Positions 2,967 to 23,455 are shown, numbered from the stretch's first letter. The stretch: DNA of 64,000 nucleotides from Laetmonice hystrix (GCA_965235115.1 OZ249436.1:3784001-3848000); one strand, 5' to 3'. A program made the numbers and translations. The notes: generated by a model from the letters alone, not told the origin.

Positions 2967-4440
2967 GGGACTAGAGCACATGCATGCACACATGTCATGT
3001 CCCGCATGTTTCTATCCATACATTATAAAGGCAACGTTCCGAAACAATCTTACCTGCCATTCCTGACAACGTGATCTTTCAATGTTCGCGGCAACGTTTC
3101 AACTTGCTGAATGACCGTATTCTCGAAATGGCAATCTTTATATAGTTGCGTGCCACGTGACAGAATGCGTCCAGACGAACCAGTCCATGTCAAAGTTCAA
3201 ACGCCTCGATCTTGGTTCTATTTTCGTGACATCCCGTGTCGAGACGCTCGCCCCTTCAAGGACACATTTTGACCAGTTATGTAATGTGTGGTGTGTAGTT
3301 TCGCGACTTGTTCGATGAAATGCCAATATTGGGTCCGTATTTAGCGGGGAAGGGAGTTGACACGAAGGAAACCTGCCTTTTTCAAATAAAAATATGCTCT
3401 TCATGACCTCGGCCTGGCCCTTTGGCTGCGTGCGGCCTCGGGCCGGTGTTAAATTCGTAAAATGTGCCTAGTCCAGAACGCGGGGGTCAGGGGGGGGGGG
3501 AGGGGGTCGGTCGGTCGGTCGGTCGGGGGAACCCCCTTTTGGACGAACCCCTTTCAAAAGTACGACCCTCCTCTTTAAAACTGCAACGTTGATCGTAGAT
3601 CTAGTGCTAGGGCTGCGCACTCAGTTGTTCACATTCGGCCGAATATTCGAGTCGGCCGAATATATCGTCTTCAGTCATGTTCGGCTGATTAAAAGGAACC
3701 AATTGCATCTTATGTTAGAGAAAATCAAACTTTTTCCGATATAGCTACCTACATGTTTACAAATTTATCTCAGACCAGACGCCACAGGAATTACCACGTT
3801 GTGTGATGTTGTTCAACAAACCAGCATTCTTGTTTTCACGGTTAAAATTGTGTACATTCTAGGGGTCAGGGGTGATTAGAATATGTTTTAGTAAATAGCG
3901 AATCTTTCCTTAGAAACACAAGAATATTGTTTATATTGGACAAAAAAAAACTTCAACTCAGTGACTCCCCCCAGAAAAGTGTACCTTGAATTGCTAGGTT
4001 TTGTCAATAATAATAGAATACAAAGTATGACCACTCTAGGGCCCGCCCCCTTACATGCTTGAACACTTTAGGGCCCGTCCCCTTTTCTATTCTTGAACAG
4101 AATGGACGCAGGTTGAAAATCCTTTTTGAAAAATCTTAAACAAATTCAATAGTATCCATACGATATTGAATGTATATCATTATAATCCTAATGAAAAGCC
4201 AGGTTAAGACAATGAATGAAATATAACACATTCGTAGGAAGTTGATCGAGCACGGCATGGTCAGGTACTTTGGCGTCCTCTATCGGAAGGGGCATAAACT
4301 AAAACGGTGGTCGCGGAATTTGGCTCACTATGAACACGGTGGCGACCTCTTACGGAGGGAGTTACTAAGTAGAATGAAGTCACAAGACGTGGGGCTGAAC
4401 GAATTAACGCCATGAGATAAAAAGACAGTGATGTAATTAT

Positions 4441-4675
4441 CCGATTGGGCGAGAACTGCTACCGGCTTCTAATGACTTCACGCCAAATTCGAAAATAGGC
4501 GGCCATGCTGTCAGGGCTATGTAGCGTCTGACACATTTGTCAGGTGTCGACTAGCTCAGAGTGAGCACCCTTTATCGCACCTCACGACCGCCTCTTGCCA
4601 TCAACACTCGCCTCCACTCTGATTCTTTCCCACCATATATTACGGGCACCAGCATTACTTGGAAACAATCATCGT
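4441..4675 (+). promoter_or_regulatory. Putative promoter of the array gene (copy 1, conserved in all copies): inverted CCAAT (ccgattggg 4441-4449), TGACTTCA (4472-4479), TTCGAAA, TATA-like TATATTA (4636-4642), TCAT initiator-like site ~4669
   Basis: Motif matches with TATA-to-initiator spacing of ~30 bp; ATG follows ~55 nt later in good context (acagtcATGG). Confidence 0.55.
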
Positions 4676-4722
4676 TAAGCCTTCAGCTTGCAACAATTCA
4701 CTCAGAATATTTTACTACAGTC

Positions 4723-5043
4723 ATGGCTCCAGTTGATAAACTCATCTCTGAGATGCGCCAGATGGACCGCAAGTTCAAGGTGGCCTGTCAGCAAGTCAAT
4801 CTCCTCAACAACCGTATCAAGGAAATGAAGACCAAACACGACCGTGCCGTCCGCAAGAACCGCCGCTCCTTCCGCTACCACAACCGGCTCCGTCTGGTCA
4901 CCCTGGAGGGGGTGAGGAACATGTTCTGGGAGTACGCCAACAGCCGTGCCGACCTCCTGGACGATATGGAGGACCGCCTCATGGAGGAGTTTCAGGTCGA
5001 CTGGGAGGAGGTGTGCGAGGATGAGGACGACCAGCACCAGTGA
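4723..5043 (+). CDS. Array gene copy 1: 106-aa intronless protein, predicted helical/coiled coil, basic RKNRRSFRY core, acidic C-tail; function unknown
   Basis: ATG in good context and GC3-rich codons contrasting with AT-rich flanks; the GTG-started 54-aa extension in the ORF track runs through the TATA region and is not considered coding. Confidence 0.85.
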   Translation: MAPVDKLISEMRQMDRKFKVACQQVNLLNNRIKEMKTKHDRAVRKNRRSFRYHNRLRLVTLEGVRNMFWEYANSRADLLDDMEDRLMEEFQVDWEEVCEDEDDQHQ

Positions 5044-5073
5044 AGAGAACCATTCTCTCACACAAACCTACAC

Positions 5074-5109
5074 GGCCCTTGTCAGGGCCACACTCTGTCT
5101 CAAAAGAAT
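5074..5109 (+). terminator. Histone-type 3' stem-loop GGCCCT-TGTC-AGGGCC (5074-5089), then ACAC, then purine-rich HDE-like CAAAAGAAT (5101-5109). Intact also at 8777, 11055, 12028, 13002, 13981, 16274, 18570 and 20870
   Basis: 6-bp stem and 4-nt loop matching the metazoan histone consensus GGYYYT-TYTN-ARRRCC-AC except at loop position 2 (G); sits 30 nt after the stop codon. Confidence 0.75.
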
Positions 5110-6132
5110 CGATGATTGTTATTTTGTTTTGACTCCTGTCTTTCATGACTCTTCTCAGCTCCCTTTTAGTTTCCCCAATGAACCATCCTTTGTAATCCAT
5201 GTGGAAACAGAACGAAGTTGTCCGAGAATGATTAAAAAAAAATTCATATCGTGCCTCTATAACAGTACATTAAATGGCATGCCAGTTATATTGCAAGATC
5301 CCTGTACTCCGATATAATTAAATAGGCCTACTTTGAAAAGAAGATAGTAAAAAGTAACCAACTTCGTATCAATTTCTATATTCATGCCTCCCTCTATGTG
5401 TCCCCTTTTCTATTCTTGCACAGTTTCTAGTGCTTTGCCACGCATTGTTGCCTGGCTTTTCTCTTTGCAGGCGGCCTATAGACACTAACACATTAATAAT
5501 GTTCACAAATTCAACAGTATCCATACGATATTGAATCTATATCATATTATAATCCTAATGAAAAGCCAGGTTAAGACAATGAATGAAATATTATCCATTC
5601 GTAGGAAGACAGAGCTGAGCCTTTAGGCGGGTGTAATGCGCTGAGTTGAACGGGCACGGCATGGTCAGGTACTTTGGCGCCCTCTATCAGAAGGGGCGTA
5701 AACTAAAACGGTGGTCGCGGAATTTGGCTCACTATGAACACGGTGGCGACCTCTTACGGAGGGAGTTACTAAGTAGAATGAAGTCACAAGACGTAGGGCT
5801 GAACGAATTAACGCCATGAGATAAAAAGACAGTGATGTAATTATCCGATTGGGCGAGAACTGCTACCTGCTTCTAATGACTTCACGCCAAATTCGAAAAT
5901 AGGCGGCCATGCTGTCAGGGCTACAGCGTCTAACACATTTGTCAGGTGTCAACTGAGTGACTAGCTCAGAGTGAGCACCCTTTATCGCACCTCACGACCG
6001 CCTCTTGCCATCAACACTCACCTCCACACTAATTCTTTCCCACCATATATTACGGGCACCAGCATTACTTGGAAACAACCATCGTTAAGCCTTCAGCTTG
6101 CAACAATTCACTCAGAATATTTTACTACAGTC

Positions 6133-6453
6133 ATGGCTCCAGTTGATAAACTCATCTCTGAGATGCGCCTAATGGACTGCAAGTTCAAGGTGGCCTGTCA
6201 GCAAATCAATCTCCTCAACAAACGTATCAAGGAAATGAAGACCAAATACGACCGTGCCGTCCGCAACAACCGCCGCACCTTCCGCTACCACAACCGCCTC
6301 CGTCTGGTCACCCTGGAGGGAGTGAGGAACATGTTCTGGGAGTACGCCAACAGCCGTGCCGACCTCCTGGACGATATGCAGGACCGCCTCATGGAGGAGT
6401 TTCAGGTGGACTGGGAGGAGGTATGCGAGGATGAGGACGACCAGCACCAGTGA
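6133..6453 (+). CDS. Array gene copy 2 (stem-loop has a mismatch, AGTGCC, at 6484-6499)
   Basis: Intact 106-codon ORF nearly identical to copy 1. Confidence 0.85.
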   Translation: MAPVDKLISEMRLMDCKFKVACQQINLLNKRIKEMKTKYDRAVRNNRRTFRYHNRLRLVTLEGVRNMFWEYANSRADLLDDMQDRLMEEFQVDWEEVCEDEDDQHQ

Positions 6454-6645
6454 AGAAAACCATTCTCTCACACAAACCTACACGGCCCTTGTCAGTGCCA
6501 CACTCTGTCTCAAAAGAATCGATGATTGTTATTTTGTTTTGACTCCTGTCTTTCATGACTCTTCTCAGCTCCCTTTTAGTTCATCCAATGAACTATCCTT
6601 TGTAATCCATGTGGAAACAGAACGAAGTCGTCCGAGAATGATTAA

Positions 6646-7514
6646 AAGAAAAGACCATCGCCAGCCTGTATAGGCCAGGCACACATGCCGTGATATTCTA
6701 AGCAAGTTAAAAAATATTTGAACACAATTGGTGCTCAGATGGTTAAGATATAGGCACTTTAGTGCCGGAGGCTTCTTACAACCTGCTCAGCTGGTTAAGG
6801 CTGCCATTCCTTGGGCTAATCTCAAAGTGCGCATGCTCGCCCTAGGCGAGCATGCGCAGCACGACTGGTCTCCAGTTTGGGAGGAACTGAAAGCTGACGC
6901 ACCTGTTACGTTGATCGATTTGGAAGGCAGCGAACATTGACAGCTTATAAGCAAAATTTGTTAGAACATAGACGAAAACAATCGATAGTGATGAGGAATG
7001 GCTAGGAAAAGCCTACCGATGTCAGGGGACATATCCGGGTAGACACGGATCTGGGCAGCCGTGGGTTTCGGCCGCCTGCATTCGTACCACTTGGATTCGT
7101 GCATGCGTGTGAATGTTGACGGGAGCTTGGCCCCTGAGGCCCGGCTCCACTCTGATTACGACCGCGGGCAATGGCAGTGTCAGCATGGTCAGCACAGACC
7201 TGCTGCGTTTAGTTGTGACTGTGACTGTGACTGTGGGACTGACCCCCGTCGATTTGCCACCCGCCTCGGCTGCCTTTAGCCTAGTATAGCCTAGCAGTGC
7301 AATGCAAAAAATTAGCCCTGGAACGTCACTTCCGGTCAGCCCAATAGCAACAAATGGCTGCGCCGCTGAAGCCAGTGATTTTGACACGGTTGTCATGTTC
7401 AATATATGACTTCTTGGAATAGGGGGACATTTATTTCCAACCACTACTCTGAAAGGTGAGTATATATAGAGGCCTTGCAGCTGTCCAAATGTGATTTTTG
7501 ACTGGTCTTCTCCT
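6646..7514. mobile_element. 869-bp non-autonomous DNA transposon, Kolobok-like. Further copies at 8939-9807, 14143-15011, 16436-17307, 18732-19606 and 21032-21900
   Basis: TTAA on both sides (6642-6645, 7515-7518); imperfect TIR AAGAAAAGACCA / AGGAGAAGACCA (10/12); empty single-TTAA site in unit 1 at 5232-5235. Confidence 0.8.
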
Positions 7515-8425
7515 TTAAAAAAGAATTTCATACCGTGCCTCTATAACAGTAGGCCTACATTAAATGGCATGCCAGTTATATTGCAAGAATTTAGATCCCT
7601 GTACTCCGATATAATTAAATATTTTGAAAAGAAGATAGTAAAAAGTAACCAACTTCGTATCAATTTCTATATTCTTGCCTCCCTCTATGTGCCCCCTTTT
7701 CTATTCTTGGACAGTTTCTAGTGCTTTGCCACGCATTGTTGCCTGGCTTTTCTCTTTGCAGGCGGCCTAGGCTATAGACACAAACACATTAATAATGTTC
7801 ACAAATTCAACAGTATCCATACGATTTTGAATCTATATCATATTATAATCCTAATGAAAAGCAAGGTTAAGACAATGAATGAAATATAACAATTCGTGGG
7901 AAGATAGAGCTGATAGCTTTTAGGCGGGTGTAATGCGCTGAGTTGATCGAGCACGGCATGGTCAGGTACTTTGGCGTCCTCTATCGGAAGGGGCGTAAAC
8001 TTGATGGTCGCGGAATTTGGCTCAATATGAACACGGTGGCGACCTCTTACGGAGGGAGTTACTAAGTAGACTGAAGTCACAAGACGTGGGGCTGAACGAA
8101 TTAACGCCATGAGATAAAAAGACAGTGATGTAATTATCCGATTGGGCGAGAACTGCTACCGGTTTCTAATGACTTCACGCCAAATTCGAAAATAGGCGGC
8201 CATGCTGTCAGGGCTACAGCGTCTAACACATTTGTCAGGTGTCAACTGAGTGACTAGCTCAGAGTGAGCACCCTTTATCGCACCTCACGACCGCCTCTTG
8301 CCATCAACACTCACCTCCACACTGATTCTTTCCCACCATATATTACGGGCACCAGCATTACTTGGAAACAATCATCGTTAAGCCTTCAGCTTGCAACAAT
8401 TCACTCAGAATATTTTACTACAGTC

Positions 8426-8746
8426 ATGGCTCCAGTTGATAAACTCATCTCTGAGATGCGCCAGATGGACTGCAAGTTCAAGGTGGCCTGTCAGCAAATC
8501 AATCTCCTCAACAAACGTATCAAGGAAATGAAGACCAAATACGACCGTGCCGTCTGCAACAACCGCCGCACCTTCCGCTACCACAACCGCCTCCGTCTGG
8601 TCACCCTGGAGGGAGGGAGGAACATGTCCTGGGAGTACGCCAACAGCCGTGCCGACCTCCTGGACGATATGCAGGACCGCCTCATGGAGGAGTTTCAGGT
8701 GGACTGGGAGGAGGTATGCGAGGATGAGGACGACCAGCACCAGTGA
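8426..8746 (+). CDS. Array gene copy 3 (LEGGRNMSWEY variant)
   Basis: Intact ORF with two substitutions in an otherwise invariant motif. Confidence 0.75.
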   Translation: MAPVDKLISEMRQMDCKFKVACQQINLLNKRIKEMKTKYDRAVCNNRRTFRYHNRLRLVTLEGGRNMSWEYANSRADLLDDMQDRLMEEFQVDWEEVCEDEDDQHQ

Positions 8747-10703
8747 AGAGAACCATTCTCTCACACAAACCTACACGGCCCTTGTCAGGGCCACACTCTG
8801 TCTCAAAAGAATCGATGATTGTTATTTTGTTTTGACTCCTGTCTTTCATGACTCTTCTCAGCTCCCTTTTAGTTCCCCCAATGAACCATCCTTTGTAATC
8901 CATGTGGAAACAGAACGAAGTCGTCCGAGAATGATTAAAAGAAAAGACCATCGCCAGTCTGTATAGGCCAGGCACACATGCCGTGATATTCTAAGCAAGT
9001 TAAAAAATATTTGAACACAATTGGTGCTCAGATGGTTAAGATATAGGCACTTTAGTGCCGGAGGCTTCTTACAACCTGCTCAGCTGGTTAAGGCTGCCAT
9101 TCCTTGGGCTAATCTCAAAGTGCGCATGCTCGCCCTAGGCGAGCATGCGCAGCACGACTGCTCTCCAGTTTAGGAGGAACTGAAAGCTGACGCACCTGTT
9201 ACGTTGATCGATTTGGAAGGCAGCGAACATTGACAGCTTATAAGCAAAATTTGTTAGAACATAGACGAAAACCATCGATAGTGATGAGGAATGGCTAGGA
9301 AAAGCCTACCGATGTCAGGGGACATATCCGGGTAGACACGGATCTGGGCAGCCGTGGGTTTCGGCCGCCTGCATTCGTACCACTTGGATTCGTGCATGCG
9401 TGTGAATGTTGACGGGAGCTTGGCCCCTGAGGCCCGGCTCCACTCTGACTACGACCGCGGGCAATGGCAGTGTCAGCATGGTCAGCACAGACCTGCTGCG
9501 TTTAGTTGTGACTGTGACTGTGACTGTGGAACTGACCCCCGTCGATTTGCCACCCGCCTCGGCTGCCTTTAGCCTAGTATAGCCTAGCCGTGCCATGCAA
9601 AAAATTAGCCCTGGAACGTCACTTCCGGTCAGCCCAATAGCAACAAATGGCTGCGCTGCTGAAGCCAGTGATTTTGACACGGTTGTCATGTTCAATATAT
9701 GACTTCTTGGAATAGGGGGACATTTATTTCCAACCACTACTCTGAAAGGTGAGTATATATAGAGGCCTTGCAGCTGTCCAAATGTGATTTTTGACTGGTC
9801 TTCTCCTTTAAAAAAGAATTTCATACCGTGCCTCTATAACAGTAGGCCTACATTAAATGGCATGCCAGTTATATTGCAAGAATTTAGATCCCTGTACTCC
9901 GATATAATTAAATATTTTGAAAAGAAGATAGTAAAAAGTAACCAACTTCGTATCAATTTCTATATTCTTGCCTCCCTCTATGTGCCCCCTTTTCTATTCT
10001 TGGACAGTTTCTAGTGCTTTGCCACGCATTGTTGCCTGGCTTTTCTCTTTGCAGGCGGCCTATAGACACGAACACATTAATAATGTTCACAAATTCAACA
10101 GTATCCATACGATTTTGAATCTATATCATATTATAATCCTAATGAAAAGCAAGGTTAAGACAATGAATGAAATATAACACATTCGTGGGAAGATAGAGCT
10201 GATAGCTTTTAGGCGGGTGTAATGCGCCGAGTTGATCGAGCACGGCATGGTCAGGTACTTTGGCGTCCTCTATCGGAAGGGGCGTAAACCTGATGGTCGC
10301 GGAATTTGGCTCACTATGAACACGGTGGCGACCTCTTACGGAGGGAGTACTAAGTAGACGTAGGGCTGAACGAATTAACGCCATGAGATAAAAAGACAGC
10401 TGGTGATGTAATTATCCGATTGGGCGAGAACTGCTACCGGCTTCTAATGACTTCACGCCAAATTCGAAAATAGGCGGCCATGCTGTCAGGGCTACAGCGT
10501 CTAACACATTTGTCAGGTGTCAACTGAGTGACTAGCTCAGAGTGAGCACCCTTTATCGCACCTCACGACCGCCTCTTGCCATCAACACTCACCTCCACAC
10601 TGATTCTTTCCCACCATATATTACGGGCACCAGCATTACTTGGAAACAATCATCGTTCAGCTTTCAGCTTGCAACAATTCACTCAGAATATTTTACTACA
10701 GTC

Positions 10704-11024
10704 ATGGCTCCAGCTGATAAACTCATCTCTGAGATGCGCCAGATGGACTGCAAGTTCAAGGTGGCCTGTCAGCAAATCAATCTCCTCAACAAACGTATCA
10801 AGGAAATGAATACCAAATACGACCGTGCCGTCTGCAAGAACCGCCGCTCCTTCCGCTACCACAACCGCCTCCGTCTGGTCACCCTGGAGGGAGTGAGGAA
10901 CATGTTCTGGGAGTATGCCAACAGCCGTGCCGACCTCCTGGACGATATCCAGGACCGCCTCATGGAGGAGTTTCAGGTCGACTGGGAGCAGGTGTGCGAG
11001 GGCAATGACGACCAGCACCAGTGA
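10704..11024 (+). CDS. Array gene copy 4 (short unit)
   Basis: Intact 106-codon ORF. Confidence 0.85.
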   Translation: MAPADKLISEMRQMDCKFKVACQQINLLNKRIKEMNTKYDRAVCKNRRSFRYHNRLRLVTLEGVRNMFWEYANSRADLLDDIQDRLMEEFQVDWEQVCEGNDDQHQ

Positions 11025-11676
11025 AGAGAACCATTCTCTCAGACAAACCTACACGGCCCTTGTCAGGGCCACACTCTGTCTCAAAAGAATCGATGATTGT
11101 TATTTTGTTTTGACTCCTGTCTTTCATGACTCTTCTCAGCTCCCTTTTAGTTCCCCCAATGAACCATCCTTTGTATTCCATGCAGTAATGCGGGTGTAAT
11201 GCGCCGAGTTGATCGAGCACGGCATGGTCAGGTACTTTGGCGTCCTCTATCGGAAGGGGCGTAAACTTGATGGTCGCGGAATTTGGCTCACTATGAACAC
11301 GGTGGCGACCTCTTACGGAGGGAGTACTAAGTAGACGTAGGGCTGAACAATTTAACGCCATGAGATAAAAAGACAGTGATGTAATTATCCGATTGGGCGA
11401 GAACTGCTACCGGCTTCTAGTGACTTCACGCCAAATTCGAAAATAGGCGGCCATGCTGGCAGGGCTACAGCGTCTAACACATTTGTCAGGTGTCAACTGA
11501 GCGACTAGCTCAGAGTGAGCACCCTTTATCGCACCTCACGACCGCCTCTTGCCATCAACACTCACCTCCACACTGATTCTTTCCCACCATATATTACGGG
11601 CACCAGGATTACTTGGAAACAATCATCGCTAAGCCTTCAGCTTGCAACATTTCACTCAGAATATTTTACTACAGTC

Positions 11677-11997
11677 ATGGCTCCAGCTGATAAACTCATC
11701 TCTGAGATGCGCCAGATGGACCGCAAGTTCAAGGTGGCCTGTCAGCAAATCAATCTCCTCAACAAACGTATCAAGGAAATGAAAACCAAATACGACCGTG
11801 CCGTCCGCAAGAACCGCCGCTCCTTCCGCTACCACAACCGCCTCCGTCTGGTCACCCTGGAGGGAGTGAGGAACATGTTCTGGGAGTATGCCAACAGCCG
11901 TGCCGACCTCCTGGACGATATCCAGGACCGCCTCATGGAGGAGTTTCAGGTCGACTGGGAGCAGGTGTGCGAGGGCAATGACGACCAGCACCAGTGA
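11677..11997 (+). CDS. Array gene copy 5 (short unit)
   Basis: Intact 106-codon ORF. Confidence 0.85.
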   Translation: MAPADKLISEMRQMDRKFKVACQQINLLNKRIKEMKTKYDRAVRKNRRSFRYHNRLRLVTLEGVRNMFWEYANSRADLLDDIQDRLMEEFQVDWEQVCEGNDDQHQ

Positions 11998-12650
11998 AGA
12001 GAACCATTCTCTCAGACAAACCTACACGGCCCTTGTCAGGGCCACACTCTGTCTCAAAAGAATCGATGATTGTTATTTTGTTTTGACTCCTGTCTTTCAT
12101 GACTCTTCTCAGCTCCCTTTTAGTTCCCCCAATGAACCATCCTTTGTATTCCATGCAGTAATGCGGGTGTAATGCGCCGAGTTGATCGAGCACGGCATGG
12201 TCAGGTACTTTGGCGTCCTCTATCGGAAGGGGCGTAAACTTGATGGTCGCGGAATTTGGCTCACTATGAACACGGTGGCGACCTCTTACGGAGGGAGTAC
12301 TAAGTAGACGTAGGGCTGAACAATTTAACGCCATGAGATAAAAAGACAGTGATGTAATTATCCGATTGGGCGAGAACTGCTACCGGCTTCTAGTGACTTC
12401 ACGCCAAATTCGAAAATAGGCGGCCATGCTGGCAGGGCTACAGCGTCTTAACACATTTGTCAGGTGTCAACTGAGCGACTAGCTCAGAGTGAGCACGCTT
12501 TATCGCACCTCACGACCGCCTCTTGCCATCAACACTCACCTCCACACTGATTCTTTCCCACCATATATTACGGGCACCAGGATTACTTGGAAACAATCAT
12601 CGCTAAGCCTTCAGCTTGCAACATTTCACTCAGAATATTTTACTACAGTC

Positions 12651-12971
12651 ATGGCTCCAGCTGATAAACTCATCTCTGAGATGCGCCAGATGGACCGCAA
12701 GTTCAAGGTGGCCTGTCAGCAAATCAATCTCCTCAACAAACGTATCAAGGAAATGAAAATCAAATACGACCGTGCCGTCCGCAAGAACCGCCGCTCCTTC
12801 CGCTACCACAACCGCCTCCGTCTGGTCACCCTGGAGGGAGTGAGGAACATGTTCTGGGAGTATGCCAACAGCCGTGCCGACCTCCTGGACGATATGCAGG
12901 GCCGCCTCATGGAGGAGTTTCAGGTCGACTGGGAGGAGGTGTGCGAGGGCAATGACGACCAGCACCAGTGA
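12651..12971 (+). CDS. Array gene copy 6 (short unit)
   Basis: Intact 106-codon ORF. Confidence 0.85.
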   Translation: MAPADKLISEMRQMDRKFKVACQQINLLNKRIKEMKIKYDRAVRKNRRSFRYHNRLRLVTLEGVRNMFWEYANSRADLLDDMQGRLMEEFQVDWEEVCEGNDDQHQ

Positions 12972-13629
12972 AGAGAACCATTCTCTCACACAAACCTACA
13001 CGGCCCTTGTCAGGGCCACACTCTGTCTCAAAAGAATTGATGATTGTTATTTTGTTTTGACTCCTGTCTTTCATGACTCTTCTCAGCTCCCTTTTAGTTC
13101 CCCCAATGAACCATCCTTTGTATTCCATGCAGTAATGCGGGTGTAATGCGCCGAGTTGATCGAGCACGGCATGGTCAGGTACTTTGGCGTCCTCTATCGG
13201 AAGGGGCGTAAACTTGATGGTCGCGGAATTTGGCTCACTATGAACACGGTGGCGACCTCTTACGGAGGGAGTACTAAGTAGACGTAGGGCTGAACAATTT
13301 AACGCCATGAGATAAAAAGACAGTGATGTAATTATCCGATTGGGCGAGAACTGCTATCGGCTTCTAATGACTTCACGCCAAATTCGAAAATAGGCGACCA
13401 TGCTGGCAGGGCTACAGCGTCTAGATCTAACACATTTGTCAGGTGTCAACTGAGCGACTAGCTCAGAGTGAGCACCCTTTATTGCACCTCACGACCGCCT
13501 CTTGACATCAACACTCACCTCCACACTGATTCTTTCCCACCATATATTACGGGCACCAGGATTACTTGGAAACAATCATCGTTCAGCTATCAGCTTGCAA
13601 CAATTCACTCAGAATATTTTACTACAATC

Positions 13630-13950
13630 ATGGCTCCAGTTGATAAACTCATCTCTGAGATGCGCCAGATGGACCGCAAGTTCAAGGTGGCCTGTCAGCA
13701 AATCAATCTCCTCAACAAACGTATCAAGGAAATGAATACCAAATACGACCGTGCCGTCCGCAAGAACCGCCGCTCCTTCCGCTACCACAACCGCCTCCGT
13801 CTGGTCACCCTGGAGGGAGTGAGGAACATGTTCTGGGAGTACGCCAACAGTCGTGCCGACCTCCTGGACGATATGGAGGACCGCCTAATGGAGGAGTTTC
13901 AGGTGGACTGGGAGGAGGTATGCGAGGATGAGGACGACCAGCACCAGTGA
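13630..13950 (+). CDS. Array gene copy 7
   Basis: Intact 106-codon ORF. Confidence 0.85.
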   Translation: MAPVDKLISEMRQMDRKFKVACQQINLLNKRIKEMNTKYDRAVRKNRRSFRYHNRLRLVTLEGVRNMFWEYANSRADLLDDMEDRLMEEFQVDWEEVCEDEDDQHQ

Positions 13951-15923
13951 AGAAAACCATTCTCTCACACAAACCTACACGGCCCTTGTCAGGGCCACAC
14001 TCTGTCTCAAAAGAATCGATGATTGTTATTTTGTTTTGACTCCTGTCTTTCATGACTCTTCTCAGCTCCCTTTTAGTTCCCCCAATGAACCATCCTTTGT
14101 AATCCATGTGGAAACAGAACGAAGTCATCCGAGAATGATTAAAAGAAAAGACCATCGCCAGCCTGTATAGGCCAGGCACACATGACGTGATATTCTAAGC
14201 AAGTTAAAAAATATTTGAACACAATTGGTGCTCAGATGGTTAAGATATAGGCACTTTAGTGCCGGAGGCTTCTTACAACCTGCTCAGCTGGTTAAGGCTG
14301 CCATTCCTTGGGCTAATCTCAAAGTGCGCATGCTCGCCTTAGGCGAGCATGCGCAGCACGACTGCTCTCCGGTTTGGGAGGAACTGAAAGCTGACGCACC
14401 TGTTACGTTGATCGATTTGGAAGGCAGCGAACATTGACAGCTTATAAGCAAAATTTGTTAGAACATAGACGAAAACCACCGATAGTGATGAGGAATGGCT
14501 AGGAAAAGCCTACCGATGTCAGGGGACATATCCGGGTAGACACGGATCTGGGCAGCCATGGGTTTCGGCCGCCTGCATTCGTACCACTTGGATTCGTGCA
14601 TGCGTGTGAATGTTGACGGGAGCTTGGCCCCTGAGGCCCGGCTCCACTCTGACTACGACCGCGGGCAATGGCAGTGTCATCATGGTCAGCACAGACCTGC
14701 TGCGTTTAGTTGTGACTGTGACTGTGACTGTGGAACTGACCCCCGTCGATTTGCCACCCGCCTCGGCTGCCTTTAGCCTAGTATAGCCTAGCCGTGCCAT
14801 GCAAAAAATTAGCCCTGGAACGTCACTTCCGGTCAGCCCAATAGCAACAAATGGCTGCGCTGCTGAAGCCAGTGATTTTGACACGGTTGTCATGTTCAAT
14901 ATATGACTTCTTGGAATAGGGGGACATTTATTTCCAACCACTACTCTGAAAGGTGAGTATATATAGAGGCCTTGCAGCTGTCCAAATGTGATTTTTGACT
15001 GGTCTTCTCCTTTAAAAAAGAATTTCATACCGTGCCTCTATAACAGTAGGCCTACATTAAATGGCATGCCAGTTATATTGCAAGAATTTAGATCCCTGTA
15101 CTCCGATATAATTAAATATTTTGAAAAGAAGATAGTAAAAAGTAACCAACTTCGTATCAATTTCTATATTCTTGCCTCCCTCTATGTGCCCCCTTTTCTA
15201 TTCTTGGACAGTTTCTAGTGCTTGGCCACGCATTGTTGCCTGGCTTTTCTCTTTGCAGGCGGCCTAGGCTATAGACACAAACACATTAATAATGTTCACA
15301 AATTCAACAGTATCCATACGATTTTGAATCTATATCATATTATAATCCTAATGAAAAGCAAGGTTAAGACAATGAATGAAATATAACACTTTCGTGGGAA
15401 GACAGAGCTGATAGCTTTTAGGCGGGTGTAATGCGCTGAGTTGATCGAGCACGGCATGGTCAGGTACTTTGGCGTCCTCTATCGGAAGGGGCGTAAACTT
15501 GATGGTCGCGGAATTTGGCTCACTATGAACACGGTGGCGACCTCTTACGGAGGGAGTTACTAAGTAGACTGAAGTCACAAGACGTAGGGCTGAACGAATT
15601 AACGGCATGAGATAAAAAGACAGTGATGTAATTATCCGATTGGGCGAGAACTGCTACCGGCTTCTGATGACTTCACGCCAAATTCGAAAATAGGCGGCCA
15701 TGCTGTCAGGGCTACAGCATCTAACACATTTGTCAGGTGTCAACTGAGTGACTAGCTCAGAGTGAGCACCCTTTATCGCACCTCACGACCGCCTCTTGCC
15801 ATCAACACTCACCTCCACACTAATTCTTTCCCACCATATATTACGGGCACCAGCATTACTTGGAAACAATCATCATTAAGCCTTCAGCTTGCAACAATTC
15901 ACTCAGAATATTTTACTACAGTC

Positions 15924-16243
15924 ATGGCTCCAGTTGATAAACTCATCTCTGAGATGCGCCAGATGGACTGCAAGTTCAAGGTGGCCTGTCAGCAAATCAA
16001 TCTCCTCAACAAACGTATCAAGGAAATGAAGACCAAATACGACCGTGCCGTCCGCAACAACCGCCGCACCTTCCGCTACCACAACCGCCTCCGTCTGGTC
16101 ACCCTGGAGGGAGTGAGGAACATGTTCTGGGAGTACACCAACAGCCGTGCCGACCTCCTGGACGATATGCAGGACGCCTCATGGAGGAGTTTCAGGTGGA
16201 CTGGGAGGAGGTATGCGAGGATGAGGACGACCAGCACCAGTGC
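15924..16243 (+). pseudogene. Array gene copy 8, frameshifted: 1-bp deletion near 16175 (aggacgcctc vs aggaccgcctc) and original stop changed TGA>TGC; the shifted frame reads to 16463
   Basis: Comparison with sibling copies; an assembly error is possible. Confidence 0.7.
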
Positions 16244-18218
16244 AGAAAACCATTCTCTCACACAAACCTACACGGCCCTTGTCAGGGCCACACTCTGTCT
16301 CAAAAGAATCGATGATTGTTATTTTGTTTTGACTCCTGTCTTTCATGACTCTTCTCAGCTCCCTTTTAATTCCCCCAATGAACCATCCTTTGTAATCCAT
16401 GTGGAAACAGAACGAAGTCGTCCGAGAATGATTAAAAGAAAAGACCATCGCCAGCCTGTATAGGCCAGTCACACATGCCGTGATATCTAAGCAAGTTAAA
16501 AAATATTTGAACACAATTGGTGCTCAGATGGTTAAGATATAGGCACTTTAGTGCCGGAGGCTTCTTACAACCTGCTCAGCTGGTTAAGGCTGCCATTCCT
16601 TGGGCTAATCTCAAAGTGCGCATGCTCGCCCGCCCTAGGCGAGCATGCGCAGCACGACTGCTCTCCAGTTTGGGAGGAACTGAAAGCTGACGCACCTGTT
16701 ACGTTGATCGATTTGGAAGGCAGCGAACATTGACAGCTTATAAGCAAAATTTGTTAGAACATAGACGAAAACCATCGATAGTGATGAGGAATGGCTAGGA
16801 AAAGCCTACCGATGTCAGGGGACATATCCGGGTAGACACGGATCTGGGCAGCCGTGGGTTTCGGCCGCCTGCATTCGTCCCACTTGGATTCGTGCATGCG
16901 TGTGAATGTTGACGGGAGCTTGGCCCCTGAGGCCCGGCTCCACTCTGACTACGACCGCGGGCAATGGCAGTGTCAGCATGGTCAGCACAGACCTGCTGCG
17001 TTTAGTTGTGACTGTGACTGTGACTGTGGGACTGACCCCCGTCGATTTGCCACCCGCCTCGGCTGCCTTTAGCCTAGTATAGCCTAGCAGTGCAATGCAA
17101 AAAATTAGCCCTGGAACGTCACTTCCGGTCAGCCCAATAGCAACAAATGGCTGCGCCGCTGAAGCCAGTGATTTTGACACGGTTGTCATGTTCAATATAT
17201 GACTTCTTGGAATAGGGGGACATTTATTTCCAACCACTACTCTGAAAGGTGAGTATATATAGAGGCCTTGCAGCTGTCCAAATGTGATTTTTGACTGGTC
17301 TTCTCCTTTAAAAAAGAATTTCATACCGTGCCTCTATAACACTAGGCCTACATTAAATGGCATGCCAGTTATATTGCAAGAATTTAGATCCCTGTACTCC
17401 GATATAATTAAATATTTTGAAAAGAAGATAGTAAAAAGTAACCAACTTCGTATCAATTTCTATATTCTTGCCTCCCTCTATGTGCCCCCTTTTCTATTCT
17501 TGGACAGTTTCTAGTGCTTGGCCACGCATTGTTGCCTGGCTTTTCTCTTTGCAGGCGGCCTAGGCTATAGACACAAACACATTAATAATGTTCACAAATT
17601 CAACAGTATCCATACGATTTTGAATCTATATCATATTATAATCCTAATGAAAAGCAAGGTTAAGACAATGAATGAAATATAACACATTCGTGGGAAGACA
17701 GAGCTGATAGCTTTTAGGCGGGTGTAATGCGCTGAGTTGATCGAGCACGGCATGGTCAGGTACTTTGGCGTCCTCTATCGGAAGGGGCGTAAACTTGATG
17801 GTCGCGGAATTTGGCTCACTATGAACACGGTGGCGACCTCTTACGGAGGGAGTTACTAAGTAGAATGAAGTCACAAGACGTAGGGCTGAACGAATTAACG
17901 CCATGAGATAAAAAGACAGTGATGTAATTATCCGATTGGGCGAGAACTGCTACCGGCTTCTAATGACTTCACGCCAAATTTGAAAATAGGCGGCCATGCT
18001 GTCAGGGCTACAGCGTCTAACACATTTGTCAGGTGTCAACTGAGTGACTAGCTCAGAGTGAGCACCCTTTTCGCACCTCACGACCGCCTCTTGCCATCAA
18101 CACTCACCTCTACACTAATTCTTTCCCACCATATATTACGGGCACCAGCATTACTTGGAAACTATCATCGTTAAGCCTTCAGCTTGCAACAATTCACTCA
18201 GAATATTTTACTACAGTC

Positions 18219-18539
18219 ATGGCTCCAGTTGATAAACTCATCTCTGAGATGCGCCAGATGGACTGCAAGTTTAAGGTGGCCTGTCAGCAAATGAATCTCC
18301 TCAACAAACGTATCAAGGAAATGAAGACCAAATACGACCGTGCCGTCCGCAACAACCGCCGCACCTTCCGCTACCACAACCGCCTCCGTCTGGTCACCCT
18401 GGAGGGAGTGAGGAACATGTTCTGGGAGTACGCCAACAGCCGTGCCGACCTCCTGGACGATATGCAGGACCGCCTCATGGAGGAGTTTCAGGTGGACTGG
18501 GAGGAGGTATGCGAGGATGAGGACGACCAGCACCAGTGA
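18219..18539 (+). CDS. Array gene copy 9
   Basis: Intact 106-codon ORF; a 1-bp deletion upstream breaks the GTG extension, which supports the ATG start. Confidence 0.85.
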   Translation: MAPVDKLISEMRQMDCKFKVACQQMNLLNKRIKEMKTKYDRAVRNNRRTFRYHNRLRLVTLEGVRNMFWEYANSRADLLDDMQDRLMEEFQVDWEEVCEDEDDQHQ

Positions 18540-20518
18540 AGAAAACCATTCTCTCACACAAACCTACACGGCCCTTGTCAGGGCCACACTCTGTCTCAAA
18601 AGAATCGATGATTGTTATTTTGTTTTGACTCCTGTCTTTCATGACTCTTCTCAGCTCCCTTTTAGTTCCCCCAATGAACCATCCTTTGTAATCCATGTGG
18701 AAACAGAACGAAGTCGTCCGAGAATGATTAAAAGAAAAGACCATCGCCAGCCTGTATAGGCCAGGCACACATGCCGTGATATTCTAAGCAAGTTAAAAAA
18801 TATTTGAACACAATTGGTGCTCAGATGGTTAAGATATAGGCACTTTAGTGCCGGAGGCTTCTTACAACCTGCTCAGCTGGTTAAGGCTGCCATTCCTTGG
18901 GCTAATCTCAAAGTGCGCATGCTCGCCCTAGGCGAGCATGCGCAGCACGACTGCTCTCCAGTTTGGGAGGAACTGAAAGCTGACGCACCTGTTACGTTGA
19001 TCGATTTGGAAGGCAGCGAACATTGACAGCTTATAAGCATAATTTGTTAGAACATAGACGAAAACCATCGATAGTGATGAGGAATGGCTAGGAAAAGCCT
19101 ACCGATGTCAGGGGACATATCCGGGTAGACACGGATCTGGGCAGCCATGGGTTTCGGCCGCCTGCATTCGTCCCACTTGGATTCGTGCATGCGTGTGAAT
19201 GTTGACGGGAGCTTGGCCCCTGAGGCCCGGCTCCACTCTGACTACGACCGCGGGCAATGGCAGTGTCAGCATGGTCAGCACAGACCTGCTGCGTTTAGTT
19301 GTGACTGTGACTGTGACTGTGACTGTGGAACTGACCCCCGTCGATTTGCCACCCGCCTCGGCTGCCTTTAGCCTAGTATAGCCTAGCCGTGCCATGCAAA
19401 AAATTAGCCCTGGAACGTCACTTCCGGTCAGCCCAATAGCAACAAATGGCTGCGCTGCTGAAGCCAGTGATTTTGACACGGTTGTCATGTTCAATATATG
19501 ACTTCTTGGAATAGGGGGACATTTATTTCCAACCACTACTCTGAAAGGTGAGTATATATAGAGGCCTTGCAGCTGTCCAAATGTGATTTTTGACTGGTCT
19601 TCTCCTTTGAAAAAGAATTTCATACCGTGCCTCTATAACAGTAGGCCTACATTAAATGGCATGCCAGTTATATTGCAAGAATTTAGATCCCTGTACTCCG
19701 ATATAATTAAATATTTTGAAAAGAAGATAGTAAAAAGTAACCAACTTCGTATCAATTTCTATATTCTTGCCTCCCTCTATGTGCCCCCTTTTCTATTCTT
19801 GGACAGTTTCTAGTGCTTGGCCACGCATTGTTGCCTGGCTTTTCTCTTTGCAGGCGGCCTAGGCTATAGACACAAACACATTAATAATGTTCACAAATTC
19901 AACAGTATCCATACGATTTTGAATCTATATCATATTATAATCCTAATGAAAAGCAAGGTTAAGACAATGAATGAAATATAACACTTTCGTGGGAAGACAG
20001 AGCTGATAGCTTTTAGGCGGGTGTAATGCGCTGAGTTGATCGAGCACGGCATGGTCAGGTACTTTGGCGTCCTCTATCGGAAGGGGCGTAAACTTGATGG
20101 TCGCGGAATTTGGCTCACTATGAACACGGTGGCGACCTCTTACGGAGGGAGTTACTAAGTAGAATGAAGTCACAAGACGTAGGGCTGAACGAATTAACGC
20201 CATGAGATAAAAAGACAGTGATGTAATTATCCGATTGGGCGAGAACTGCTACCGGCTTCTAATGACTTCACGCCAAATTCGAAAATAGGCGGCCATGCTG
20301 TCAGGGCTACAGCATCTAACACATTTGTCAGGTGTCAACTGAGTGACTAGCTCAGAGTGAGCACCCTTTATCGCACCTCACGACCGCCTCTTGCCATCAA
20401 CACTCACCTCCACACTAATTCTTTCCCACCATATATTACGGGCACCAGCATTACTTGGAAACAACCATCGTTAAGCCTTCAGCTTGCAACAATTCACTCA
20501 GAATATTTTACTACAGTC

Positions 20519-20839
20519 ATGGCTCCAGTTGATAAACTCATCTCTGAGATGCGCCAGATGGACTGCAAGTTCAAGGTGGCCTGTCAGCAAATCAATCTCC
20601 TCAACAAACGTATCAAGGAAATGAAGACCAAATACGACCGTGCCGTCCGCAACAACCGCCGCACCTTCCGCTACCACAACCGCCTCCGTCTGGTCACCCT
20701 GGAGGGAGTGAGGAACATGTTCTGGGAGTACGCCAACAGCCGTGCCGACCTCCTGGACGATATGCAGGACCGCCTCATGGAGGAGTTTCAGGTGGACTGG
20801 GAGGAGGTATGCGAGGATGAGGACGACCAGCACCAGTGA
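20519..20839 (+). CDS. Array gene copy 10
   Basis: Intact 106-codon ORF. Confidence 0.85.
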   Translation: MAPVDKLISEMRQMDCKFKVACQQINLLNKRIKEMKTKYDRAVRNNRRTFRYHNRLRLVTLEGVRNMFWEYANSRADLLDDMQDRLMEEFQVDWEEVCEDEDDQHQ

Positions 20840-22798
20840 AGAAAACCATTCTCTCACACAAACCTACACGGCCCTTGTCAGGGCCACACTCTGTCTCAAA
20901 AGAATCGATGATTGTTATTTTGTTTTGACTCCTGTCTTTCATGACTCTTCTCAGCTCCCTTTTAGTTCCCCCAATGAACCATCCTTTGTAATCCATGTGG
21001 AAACAGAACGAAGTCGTCCGAGAATGATTAAAAGAAAAGACCATCGCCAGCCTGTATAGGCCAGGCACACATGCCGTAATATTCTAAGCAAGTTAAAAAA
21101 TATTTGAACACAATTGGTGCTCAGATGGTTAAGATATAGGCACTTTAGTGCCGGAGGCTTCTTACAACCTGCTCAGCTGGTTAAGGCTGCCATTCCTTGG
21201 GCTAATCTCAAAGTGCGCATGCTCGCCCTAGGCGAGCATGCGCAGCACGACTGCTCTCCAGTTTGGGAGGAACTGAAAGCTGACGCACCTGTTACGTTGA
21301 TCGATTTGGAAGGCAGCGAACATTGACAGCTTATAAGCAAAATTTGTTAGAACATAGACGAAAACCATCGATAGTGATGAGGAATGGCTAGGAAAAGCCT
21401 ACCGATGTCAGGGGACATATCCGGGTAGACACGGATCTGGGCAGCCGTGGGTTTCGGCCGCCTGCATTCGTACCACTTGGATTCGTGCATGCGTGTGAAT
21501 GTTGACGGGAGCTTGGCCCCTGAGGCCCGGCTCCACTCTGACTACGACCGCGGGCAATGGCAGTGTCAGCATGGTCAGCACAGACCTGCTGCGTTTAGTT
21601 GTGACTGTGACTGTGACTGTGGAACTGACCCCCGTCGATTTGCCACCCGCCTCGGCTGCCTTTAGCCTAGTATAGCCTAGTCGTGCCATGCAAAAAATTA
21701 GCCCTGGAACGTCACTTCCGGTCAGCCCAATAGCAACAAATGGCTGCGCTGCTGAAGCCAGTGATTTTGACACGGTTGTCATGTTCAATATATGACTTCT
21801 TGGAATAGGGGGACATTTATTTCCAACCACTACTCTGAAAGGTGAGTATATATAGAGGCCTTGCAACTGTCCAAATGTGTTTTTTGACTGGTCTTCTCCT
21901 TTAAAAAAGAATTTCATGCCGTGCCTCTATAAAAGTAGGCCTACATTAAATGGCATGCCAGTTATATTGCAAGAATTTAGATCCCTGTACTCCGATATAA
22001 TTAAATATTTTGAAAAGAAGATAGTAAAAAGTAACCAACTTCGTATCAATTTCTATATTCTTGCCTCCCTCTATGTGCCCCCTTTTCTATTCTTGGACAG
22101 TTTCTAGTGCTTGGCCACGCATTGTTGCCTGGCTTTTCTCTTTGCAGGCGGCCTATAGACACGAACACATTAGGCCTAATAATGTTCACAAATTCAACAG
22201 TATCCATACGATTTTGAATCTATATCATATTATAATCCTAATGAAAAGCAAGGTTAAGACAATGAATGAAATATAACACATTCGTGGGAAGACAGAGCTG
22301 ATAGCTTTTAGGCGGGTGTAATGCGCTGAGTTGATCGAGCACGGCATGGTCAGGTACTTTGGCGTCCTCTATCGGAAGGGGCGTAAACTTGATGGTCGCG
22401 GAATTTGGCTCACTATGAACACGGTGGCGACCTCTTACGGAGGGAGTACTAAGTAGACGTAGGGCTGAACGAATTAACGCCATGAGATAAAAAGACAGTG
22501 ATGTAATTATCCGATTGGGCGAGAACTGCTACCGGCTTCTAATGACTTCACGCCAAATTCGAAAATAGGCGGCCATGCTGTCAGGGCTACAGCGTCTAAC
22601 ACATTTGTCAGGTGTCAACTGAGTGACTAGCTCAGAGTGAGCACCCTTTATCCCACCTCACGACCGCCTCTTGCCATCAACACTCACCTCCACACTGATT
22701 CTTTCCCACCATATATTACGGGCACCAGCATAACTTGGAAACAATCATCGTTAAGCTTTCAGCTTGCAACAATTCACTCAGAATATTTTACTACAGTC

Positions 22799-23119
22799 AT
22801 GGCTCCAGTTGATAAACTCATCTCTGAGATGCGCCAGATGGACCGCAAGTTCAAGGTGGCCTGTCAGCAAATCAATCTCCTCAACAAACGTATCAAGGAA
22901 ATGAATACCAAATACGACCGTGCCGTCCGCAACAACCGCCGCACCTTCCGCTACCACAACCGCCTCCGTCTGGTCACCCTAGAGGGAGTGAGGAACATGT
23001 TCTGGGAGTACGCCAACAGCCGTGCCGACCTCCTGGACGATATGCAGGACCGCCTCATGGAGGAGTTTCAGGTCGACTGGGAGGAGGTGTGCGAGGGCAA
23101 TGACGACCAGCACCAGTGA
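22799..23119 (+). CDS. Array gene copy 11 (ORF intact; 5' half of the stem-loop deleted)
   Basis: 3' UTR reads aaacctac-tcagggccaca and lacks acggcccttg. Confidence 0.75.
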   Translation: MAPVDKLISEMRQMDRKFKVACQQINLLNKRIKEMNTKYDRAVRNNRRTFRYHNRLRLVTLEGVRNMFWEYANSRADLLDDMQDRLMEEFQVDWEEVCEGNDDQHQ

Positions 23120-23455
23120 AGAAAACCATTCTCTCACACAAACCTACTCAGGGCCACACTCTGTCTCAAAAGAATCGATGATTGTTATTTTGTTTTGACT
23201 CCTGTCTTTCATGACTCTTCTCAGCTCCCTTTTAGTTCCCCCAATGAACCATCCTTTGTTATCCATGCAGTAGGCCAAATTCCGCGACCATCAAGTTTAC
23301 GCCCCTTCCGATAGAGGACGCCAAAGTACCTGACCATGCATGAGTGCCCGCAAAAGAGATGTCAAGATTTTAGTGCAGGCTGTTAAATACAGATGTCGCT
23401 TTCGTTTGAGCTAAATGGAACTCTTCAAAGCCTGTTGGGAGGTAAGAAAGGATTG

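Follow-up and report, generated by a model that had tools for sequence, protein, structure and literature searches.

A tandemly amplified non-histone gene family with a histone-type stem-loop and downstream element in the genome of Laetmonice hystrix

The gene array and its 3' signal

The window analysed here is a stretch of 64,000 nucleotides (nt) from Laetmonice hystrix (GCA_965235115.1, OZ249436.1:3784001-3848000). It contains a tandem array of small intronless genes for a protein without histone similarity, and these genes are followed by a stem-loop and a purine-rich element of the kind known from replication-dependent histone mRNAs. The genome assembly comprises 627 Mb in 35 contigs, which carry labels of the style C1, and the window corresponds to C1:3784001-3848000. 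Eleven single-gene units are arranged head to tail on the plus strand between approximately 4400 and 23300 (Table 1), and the array extends beyond the upstream edge of the window (C1:3.76-3.78 Mb). Ten units hold an intact open reading frame (ORF) of 106 amino acids (aa). The copy at 15924 has a frameshift near codon 85, which lets the ORF run on to 179 aa, and is probably a pseudogene. An earlier note on this DNA had described 11 intronless copies of a 106-aa ORF; the 11 tandem intronless units are there, but only ten of the frames are intact. The copies are 89-100% identical to each other. Three units measure 0.97 kb, one measures 1.41 kb and six measure 2.28-2.30 kb; the extra DNA of the longer units sits between the 3' flank and the next promoter. 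The CCAAT and TATA elements that had been noticed upstream of the genes were located as well. A TATA-like ATATATTA is found at -88 in 11 of 11 copies, and an inverted CCAAT (ATTGG) lies at 4444-4448, upstream of copy 1.

The hairpin GGCCCTTGTCAGGGCC has nine exact occurrences in the window and one more with a single mismatch, while shuffles of the window lead to an expectation of 0.02. Its stem of 6 bp (GGCCCT/AGGGCC) closes a loop of 4 nt (UGUC), and this structure is the centroid fold of the 3' untranslated region (UTR). The stem is flanked by UACAC on its 5' side and by ACAC on its 3' side. In copy 1, 30 nt separate the end of the stop codon (5043) from the first position of the stem (5074). 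The stem ends at 5089, and the purine-rich CAAAAGAAT starts 11 nt further on, at 5101. The corresponding 13-mer, CAAAAGARTCGAT, is referred to below as the histone downstream element (HDE). It is present in all 11 copies (ten exact, one with one mismatch) against a chance expectation of 0.22. Two copies have a damaged hairpin. In copy 2, a G>T change in the 3' arm of the hairpin at 6484-6499 breaks one pair; in copy 11, a deletion of 10 nt took out the 5' arm. These measurements agree with the earlier description of a hairpin 30 nt after the stop codon, intact in 9 of 11 copies and followed about 12 nt later by a purine-rich element.

The Rfam model of the histone 3' stem-loop, RF00032, covers 46 positions and has a gathering cut-off of 34 bits. 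At this cut-off, no match was obtained in the window. In E-value mode, the full 46 positions are matched in the nine intact copies, which score 27.2-28.8 bits (E 1.3e-4 to 5.3e-4); copy 2, with its broken pair, reaches 17.9 bits. No other Rfam family matches the window repeatedly in this mode. As a control, the remaining 40 kb of the window gave no RF00032 match on either strand at E up to 10. The search with this model had been proposed as a check; its matches in E-value mode have scores at the level of the genome's own core histone genes (see the next section).

Table 1 Features of the gene array, in positions of the 64,000-nt window
Feature	Position	Strand	Basis
Tandem array, 11 gene units	4400..23300	+	ORF and unit mapping
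TATA-like ATATATTA, 88 nt upstream of the ATG of copy 1	4635..4642	+	sequence
Copy 1, coding sequence, 106 aa, intronless	4723..5043	+	ORF
Copy 1, signal: stem-loop 5074-5089, HDE 13-mer 5101-5113, RF00032 27.2 bits	5069..5114	+	
Copy 2, coding sequence, 106 aa	6133..6453	+	ORF
Copy 2, signal: G>T in 3' arm, 17.9 bits, HDE intact	6479..6524	+	
Copy 3, coding sequence, 106 aa	8426..8746	+	ORF
Copy 3, stem-loop and HDE, 27.2 bits	8772..8817	+	
Copy 4, coding sequence, 106 aa, 0.97-kb unit	10704..11024	+	ORF
Copy 4, stem-loop and HDE, 27.2 bits	11050..11095	+	
Copy 5, coding sequence, 106 aa, 0.97-kb unit	11677..11997	+	ORF
Copy 5, stem-loop and HDE, 27.2 bits	12023..12068	+	
Copy 6, coding sequence, 106 aa, 0.97-kb unit	12651..12971	+	ORF
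Copy 6, stem-loop and HDE (one HDE mismatch), 28.8 bits	12997..13042	+	
Copy 7, coding sequence, 106 aa	13630..13950	+	ORF
Copy 7, stem-loop and HDE, 27.2 bits	13976..14021	+	
Copy 8, frameshifted, 179-aa ORF passing through the 3' signal	15924..16463	+	ORF
Copy 8, stem-loop and HDE, 27.2 bits	16269..16314	+	
Copy 9, coding sequence, 106 aa	18219..18539	+	ORF
Copy 9, stem-loop and HDE, 27.2 bits	18565..18610	+	
Copy 10, coding sequence, 106 aa	20519..20839	+	ORF
Copy 10, stem-loop and HDE, 27.2 bits	20865..20910	+	
Copy 11, coding sequence, 106 aa, final copy of the array	22799..23119	+	ORF
Copy 11, remnant: 3' arm and HDE (23167-23179) remain, 5' arm gone	23140..23179	+	

The six units of 2.28-2.30 kb carry about 1.3 kb beyond what is present in the 0.97-kb units (e.g., 6650-7960). 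Minus-strand ORFs are found there (e.g., at 7022-7531 and 7838-8110), and this extra DNA contains a minus-strand ORF of 169 aa without Pfam match. It is probably an inserted repeat that was co-amplified with the unit. The rest of the window holds long minisatellite arrays with a period of 29-57 nt and 14-35 copies, located at 1604-2547, 28582-30144, 36084-37132, 45011-45729, 49751-51213 and 62681-63454.

Comparison with the histone genes of the genome

The core histone genes of the same assembly form a repeat of approximately 7.4 kb with H3, H4, H2B and H2A. The repeat was taken from C4:36536000-36544500 (L077) and C20:7163000-7171500 (L078), and the arrays of this quartet span C4:36.53-36.63 Mb and C20:7.16-7.20 Mb. 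The stem-loops of these genes score 28.6 (H3), 27.9 (H4), 25.6 (H2B) and 25.3 bits (H2A) with RF00032. Since the own core histone genes score only 25.3-28.6 bits, the 34-bit cut-off does not separate true histone signals in this genome. The window copies match the model as well as the species' own core histone genes do.

The agreement includes the downstream element. In L077, H3 and H4 have the stem GGCCCT/AGGGCC followed by CAAAAGAGTCGAT, and H2B has the stem GGUCCU/AGGACC followed by CAAAAGAATCGAT, which is identical to the 13-mer of the window copies. Close variants of the HDE, each with a terminal TCGAT, are present in H2A, H1 and an H2A.X-like gene. The core histone genes of this genome are without a CCAAA flank; CAAC, CUAU, UAAU or CAAU is found 5' of the stem and CCCCA 3' of it.

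The window genes share several features with the 3' signal of metazoan replication-dependent histone mRNAs, which consists of the RF00032 stem-loop and the HDE and is read by SLBP and by the small nuclear ribonucleoprotein (snRNP) of U7. A stem of 6 bp and a loop of 4 nt are common to both, as are G-C at pair 2 and U at loop positions 1 and 3. The distance of about 30 nt from stop codon to stem is also shared; the available text of a 2026 histone stem-loop survey gives a median of 30 nt for metazoan histone genes (bioRxiv 10.64898/2026.10.14.759114). The purine-rich element begins 11-13 nt past the stem, and its sequence is identical to that of the genome's own H2B in the window copies or of H3/H4 in other paralogs. 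Histone genes are likewise intronless and tandemly arrayed. In contrast to the genes that usually bear this signal, the family encodes a helical-hairpin protein without histone similarity. The loop UGUC and the flank UACAC of the window copies also depart from the typical signal, as does a mismatched pair 4 in one subfamily.

The own histone arrays and those of the family are alike in their short, intronless, head-to-tail units, in the presence of tens of copies and in the 3' signal. They differ in location, C4 and C20 for the histones versus C1, C19, C6 and others for the family. Moreover, the family units are smaller (0.97-2.3 kb) and hold one gene each, and the protein is unrelated.

Apart from the four histone genes, the core repeat holds a 5S rRNA gene (119.4 bits) and a gene for the U2 small nuclear RNA (snRNA; 188.7 bits). 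H1 is found in separate, H1-only tandem arrays with a period of 4.1-4.7 kb at C20:6.82-6.93 Mb and C4:36.09-36.20 Mb. The histone-fold family PF00125 also matches several other tandem arrays, weakly to moderately (34-69 bits) and in part with in-frame stops. These arrays, located at C10:28.03-28.08, C3:20.49-20.52, C3:37.69-37.71, C8:8.44-8.46 and C4:14.82-14.85 Mb, are possibly divergent histone-like gene arrays or pseudogene arrays.

Members of the family elsewhere in the genome

A search of the genome with the protein produced 521 candidates at first look; 150 of them were scored. The genome has at least 151 matches on 11 contigs, those named being C1-C6, C8, C19, C21 and C30. Arrays are found on C1 (1.03-1.06, 1.57-1.64 and 3.76-3.81 Mb), on C19 (a long array with a period of 1.33 kb) and on C6 (a smaller one). 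Divergent members are scattered over C2, C3, C4, C5, C8, C21 and C30.

Eighteen further paralog loci were sampled, with 37-89% protein identity to the window copy. In 16 of them, RF00032 matches the gene strand past the stop codon with 21.0-33.0 bits; the match is absent from C30:1896087 and C8:18855209. The distance from stop codon to stem is 16-55 nt in most paralogs, with outliers at 85-282 nt. When the whole genome is searched, 12 of the 13 best RF00032 matches (37.3-40.4 bits, above the cut-off) lie directly 3' of family members on C5, C8 and C21, and the 13th belongs to the H2A.X-like gene. These high-scoring paralogs have the loops UUUC and UCUC and the flanks CAAAC or CCAAA. Paralogs other than the window copies carry the H3/H4 form of the HDE, CAAAAGAGTCGAT, and in the C5 and C21 paralogs the spacer and the HDE are nearly identical to those of H4. 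Synonymous divergence (dS) exceeds 1 between several paralogs, which still keep the stem-loop and the HDE.

TATA-like boxes are found 60-128 nt upstream of the ATG in 11 of the 18 paralogs. The best shared upstream 7-mer occurs in 6 of the 18, which equals the maximum of the shuffles, and none is over-represented.

In a cluster of family members at C5:36.977-37.009 Mb (L009, L012-L014, L016-L019 and L021), ORFs that are truncated or contain stops are found; they measure 21-72 aa, apart from a single one of 133 aa with an internal stop. The stem-loops of this cluster, at 37.3-40.4 bits, have the top scores of the genome.

The number of stem-loops can vary between paralogs. The 3' UTRs of C6:34671381 and C2:34971743 have two each, as recorded for L044 and L048. 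The paralog at C1:3766998 has six, arranged in a 33-nt tandem repeat (L042:1151-1361), and the HDE follows the last one only. A tRNA gene (73.8 bits) is located at L053:91-164 (C8:19420572-19420645), about 500 nt upstream of a divergent family member.

A stem-loop of the canonical histone type is also present in a dispersed repeat, with at least 10 copies on six contigs. The repeat consists of tandem repeats of about 40 nt, followed by a common stretch of about 1.1 kb. Its stem-loop scores 35.5-36.9 bits, above the cut-off, and is followed by a purine-rich run; neither a histone nor a family ORF lies 5' of it. Copies (L022-L031) are found at C18:7141281, C1:29317073, C1:37207212, C2:11955367 and C2:14721227, and more at C2:35236477, C2:35683338, C4:32784330, C5:21463298 and C7:32902797. 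The repeat may be a mobile element or a retrocopy with a captured histone 3' end.

Relatives in other organisms and covariation of the stem

A profile of the family was compared with 1.84 billion proteins. At E up to 0.001 it retrieved 1145 cluster representatives, of which 660 remain at E up to 1e-10. The relatives with an organism name come from 15 species, all of them molluscs, and all are labelled hypothetical or uncharacterised. They are bivalves (Mya, Mactra, Mytilus, Dreissena, Pinctada, Mizuhopecten, Sinanodonta), gastropods (two Elysia species, Batillaria, Nucella, Biomphalaria, Lymnaea, Arion) and the cephalopod Octopus bimaculoides. The family is apparently mollusc-wide. A cluster look-up of 10 relatives returned no names.

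DNA of relatives was available as 38 metagenome contigs, 37 of which were assessable, as one gene runs off its contig. RF00032 matches downstream, on the gene strand, in 31 of the 37. In one batch, 20 of 20 loci match with 20.5-29.2 bits, and in the other 11 of 17 with 22.9-36.5 bits. The stem usually starts 27-53 nt past the stop codon. The six loci without the element include all four members (L114-L117) of one well-conserved subfamily.

A maximum-likelihood tree was calculated for 51 family proteins, with midpoint rooting and with five near-duplicate contigs and the truncated one omitted. Members bearing the stem-loop are found in every major clade. The subfamily without the element forms one clade of five (support 100/99), and three other element-less rows are scattered. 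From this distribution, the element was either present in the ancestor of the sampled family and lost about four times, or it was gained once near the base.

The stem itself was examined in an alignment of 44 stem-loops of the family only (43 distinct), from which histone genes were excluded. In this alignment, 93.8% of the stem cells are in standard pairs. Two-sided changes are found in three of the six pairs. Pair 1 changes from G-C to A-U in 6 rows, pair 3 from C-G to U-A in 2 rows (with U.G in 3 more) and pair 4 from C-G to U-A in 10 rows, while pairs 5 and 6 never or hardly vary. The covariation score is 0.195 versus 0.113 in shuffles and was reached by 0 of 500 shuffles; as the rows are related, such figures are not probabilities. 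All slid registers of the stem are far worse. All 43 distinct rows have G-C at pair 2. Of the loop positions, U3 does not vary and U1 is conserved in at least 90%. The conservation of the stem-loop, with covariation, is directly observed: homologues do keep it at the same position, which is what the earlier note had proposed to examine, in 16 of 18 paralogs and in 31 of the 37 assessable metagenome relatives.

Properties of the encoded protein

The proteins of the family have a size of about 100-130 aa. The first half of the window protein is rich in lysine and arginine, and its last 30 residues are acidic. For pairs of diverged paralogs, the ratio of nonsynonymous to synonymous substitution rates (dN/dS) is 0.13-0.57; near-identical array copies, which offer only small counts, have ratios of 0.37-1.14. 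Judged by these ratios, the diverged copies are under purifying selection and are real protein-coding genes.

No search assigned the protein to a histone. Pfam recognised no family; at E up to 1, two weak matches of the coiled-coil type were returned, and neither PF00125 nor another histone family. A profile search of the PDB gave coiled coils of tropomyosin, BAP31 and GCC2 (E 0.015-0.39) and no histone at E up to 10. In the ESM Atlas, the protein has a recognition of 1775, under the level reached by 91 in 100 proteins of known families, and the nearest clusters, of low recognition, are unnamed or auto-named 'transposase family protein'. AlphaFold2, run with an alignment of 26 sequences, predicts helices at residues 2-44, 48-90 and 94-104 with a predicted local distance difference test (pLDDT) score of 92.4. 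In this model, two helices of 43 residues form a hairpin that is followed by a short helix. Foldseek against the PDB returned generic helical hairpins (ESCRT-III/PspA, ING, prefoldin) at E of 0.2 or more and none at E up to 0.001; histones are not among the 46 matches listed.

By Pfam, PDB profile search and predicted fold, the protein is not a histone. The lack of histone similarity that had been stated for the ORF therefore persists in sequence, profile and predicted-structure comparisons. A reading of the protein as a strongly diverged histone, or as a chromatin protein of histone-like kind, with a 3' end inherited from a histone gene, can hardly be credited: the gene architecture is histone-like and the basic and acidic composition would fit a chromatin protein, but neither PF00125 nor any other histone family was matched at E up to 1, and the confident model shows two long helices in a hairpin and not a histone fold. 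A possible role of the protein in chromatin or replication is suggested only by the apparent mode of control of its mRNA.

SLBP, U7 and a proposed route of mRNA processing

The genome encodes an SLBP RNA-binding domain (PF15247), detected with 54.6 and 37.7 bits in two adjacent exons at C5:10536109-10538197. The U7 snRNA is a different matter. The search with RF00066, proposed in the earlier note, did not identify it: over the genome, three matches of 20.8-24.1 bits were obtained, none above the cut-off. Four pattern scans were also made. Two patterns that combined the reverse complement of the HDE with an Sm-site motif gave 0 and 3 matches, compared to 1 and 14 for reversed controls. With the Sm-site consensus RUUUNUCYNG (PMC5054213), there were 116 matches versus 174 in the control, and 1 versus 6.

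One candidate for U7 (L079) contains a stretch perfectly complementary to the H2B-type HDE, together with an Sm-like site. It was rejected because its hairpin has only 5-6 bp and RF00066 does not match it at E up to 10.

Since the genome encodes the SLBP domain and its histone genes use the same stem-loop and element, processing by SLBP and U7 is the most economical reading of the family signal. SLBP (RNA-binding domain at C5:10.536-10.538 Mb) would bind the stem-loop, and the U7 snRNP would pair with the downstream element. The pre-mRNA would be cleaved a few nt past the stem, at approximately 5093-5095 in copy 1. The product would be an mRNA without poly(A), whose synthesis, translation and decay would be in step with those of histone mRNAs, in S phase and during the rapid embryonic cleavages. 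The high copy number would provide a bulk supply, as it does for histone genes.

Probable function of the signal and alternative explanations

With a probability of roughly three in four, the genes form a large, tandemly amplified family of real protein-coding genes with a functional histone-type 3' processing signal. It is likewise probable that they share the architecture of replication-dependent histone genes as a whole, being intronless with a TATA promoter, a short 3' UTR, a stem-loop and the HDE of their own species. The proposal that a non-histone family may have co-opted histone gene architecture is supported by the in-silico tests that were run.

Nevertheless, a number of observations weigh against a functional signal of the histone type. 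The window copies remain below the gathering cut-off of RF00032, loop position 2 is G, and the 5' flank is UACAC. The last two points had been raised as caveats from the start. They hold for the window; their weight is reduced because other paralogs have the loops UUUC or UCUC and flanks of the CCAAA type, and because the own core histone genes are without CCAAA as well. The deviations are confined to the C1 arrays. The array lies apart from the histone arrays, which are found at C4:36.5 Mb and C20:7.16 Mb. One conserved subfamily, made up of C8:18855209 and L114-L117, is without the element. A part of the stem-loop conservation in the C5 cluster is due to recent duplication and not to selection, because several ORFs are truncated or interrupted there and the stem-loops are perfect. 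As for the covariation, two of five measures do not exceed the shuffles: the number of double-change pairs (attained in 66 of 500 shuffles) and that of further pair types (499 of 500). Furthermore, in 16 of the 43 distinct stem-loops, all from one metagenome subfamily, pair 4 is a conserved mismatch (C.A or A.C), which could weaken SLBP binding. U7 was found neither by RF00066 nor by the four pattern scans, the counts of which were not above the controls. An ATTAAA is located at +187/+188 after the stop codon in 7 of 11 units, namely the longer units with a complete 3' flank, as the earlier note had indicated with a position of about 190 nt; read-through and polyadenylation are therefore possible in these units. 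Finally, a search for sequencing runs with this sequence gave no RNA run. Three runs, from one sample and one study, are DNA-like, with intergenic coverage and a word depth that follows repeat copy number, and do not bear on expression or 3' ends.

The ATTAAA leads to the first alternative. The stem-loop could be functional in dual-mode genes, whose mRNAs would be read through and polyadenylated to a large extent or in some tissues, so that their expression would not be strictly coupled to replication. AATAAA or ATTAAA is also found downstream of many metagenome homologues. In the available text of PMC6210712, the H1 'orphon' genes of Mytilus carry a polyadenylation signal on a histone-type gene, which is comparable to the longer window units with ATTAAA at +188, although the orphons are histone genes and the window genes are not. 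According to the accessible part of PMC5100578, differentiated tissues contain polyadenylated forms of some replication-dependent histone mRNAs, and mammalian histone genes with this behaviour would be a further parallel. However, neither AATAAA nor ATTAAA occurs in the 1000 nt that follow the stop codon in the three 0.97-kb units, in agreement with what had been reported for them. The positions of the hexamers are not conserved among the homologues, whereas that of the stem-loop is, and the HDE, which is required only for U7-dependent cleavage, is conserved together with the stem-loop. A dual mode is thus unlikely, and strictly histone-type processing is the preferred reading of these genes.

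A second alternative regards the element as a decaying relic. An ancestral gene inside or beside a histone unit would have inherited its 3' flank, and the functionless element would persist since the copies are young. The near-identity of the array copies, whose hairpins are not independent, would be in line with this, as would the high-scoring hairpins of the truncated C5-cluster ORFs and the spacer and HDE that the C5 and C21 paralogs have nearly in common with H4. In contrast, paralogs with dS above 1 and unalignable flanks have retained the element, compensatory changes are present in the stem, and the element recurs, equally far from the stop codon, in 31 of 37 assessable relatives from other organisms. 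A relic of this kind is very unlikely.

Equally little credence is given to the idea that the hairpin is read by something other than SLBP and U7, such as a terminator or another factor, or that the array is a selfish satellite or mobile element with an incidental ORF. The mismatch at pair 4 in one subfamily, the stem-loop of the unrelated dispersed repeat and the ESM Atlas clusters with a transposase name could be cited for it. Against it, the invariant positions are known SLBP determinants: pair 2 G-C, loop U1 and U3. Pair 2 and loop U3 are named as such in the available text of the 2026 survey (bioRxiv 10.64898/2026.10.14.759114). The HDE of the family equals that of the histone genes in the same genome, dN/dS is below 1, and the protein is conserved in 15 named mollusc species. 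The Pfam scans showed no transposase domains; no dedicated search for terminal repeats or transposases was made.

Significance of a non-histone family with a histone-type 3' end

SLBP is regarded as a one-family RNA-binding protein. The novelty lies not in the RNA element, a member of a known family, but in the stable way in which an unrelated, amplified gene family uses it. In the available text of PMC4604434 and PMC5054213, replication-dependent histone mRNAs are described as the sole cellular mRNAs that end in a stem-loop and not in poly(A). The literature search, which covered full text outside subscription journals, brought up no report of a non-histone gene family with a histone stem-loop. 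The 2026 survey, as far as its available text describes the procedure, scanned the flanks of histone coding sequences only (bioRxiv 10.64898/2026.10.14.759114) and for this reason could not have detected the family.

There is slightly more to be said for than against the further-reaching statement that this is the first non-histone protein-coding family with mRNAs made and controlled via the SLBP/U7 pathway. The family would be old, as it is shared by bivalves, gastropods and a cephalopod, and would provide, from hundreds of copies, a small helical-hairpin protein with an acidic tail in step with the histones.

If a second, unrelated family has retained the signal over such deep divergence, this would demonstrate that co-option of the pathway is possible. 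The family would also give a natural non-histone substrate with which the effects of the signal could be separated from those of the histone coding region. Moreover, transcriptomes of molluscs prepared by poly(A) selection would under-report the family, and this may be why it is without a name. The family would point to a protein apparently needed in histone-like amounts and at histone-like times. If this is true, the protein could be a new stoichiometric partner of chromatin assembly or DNA replication in molluscs.

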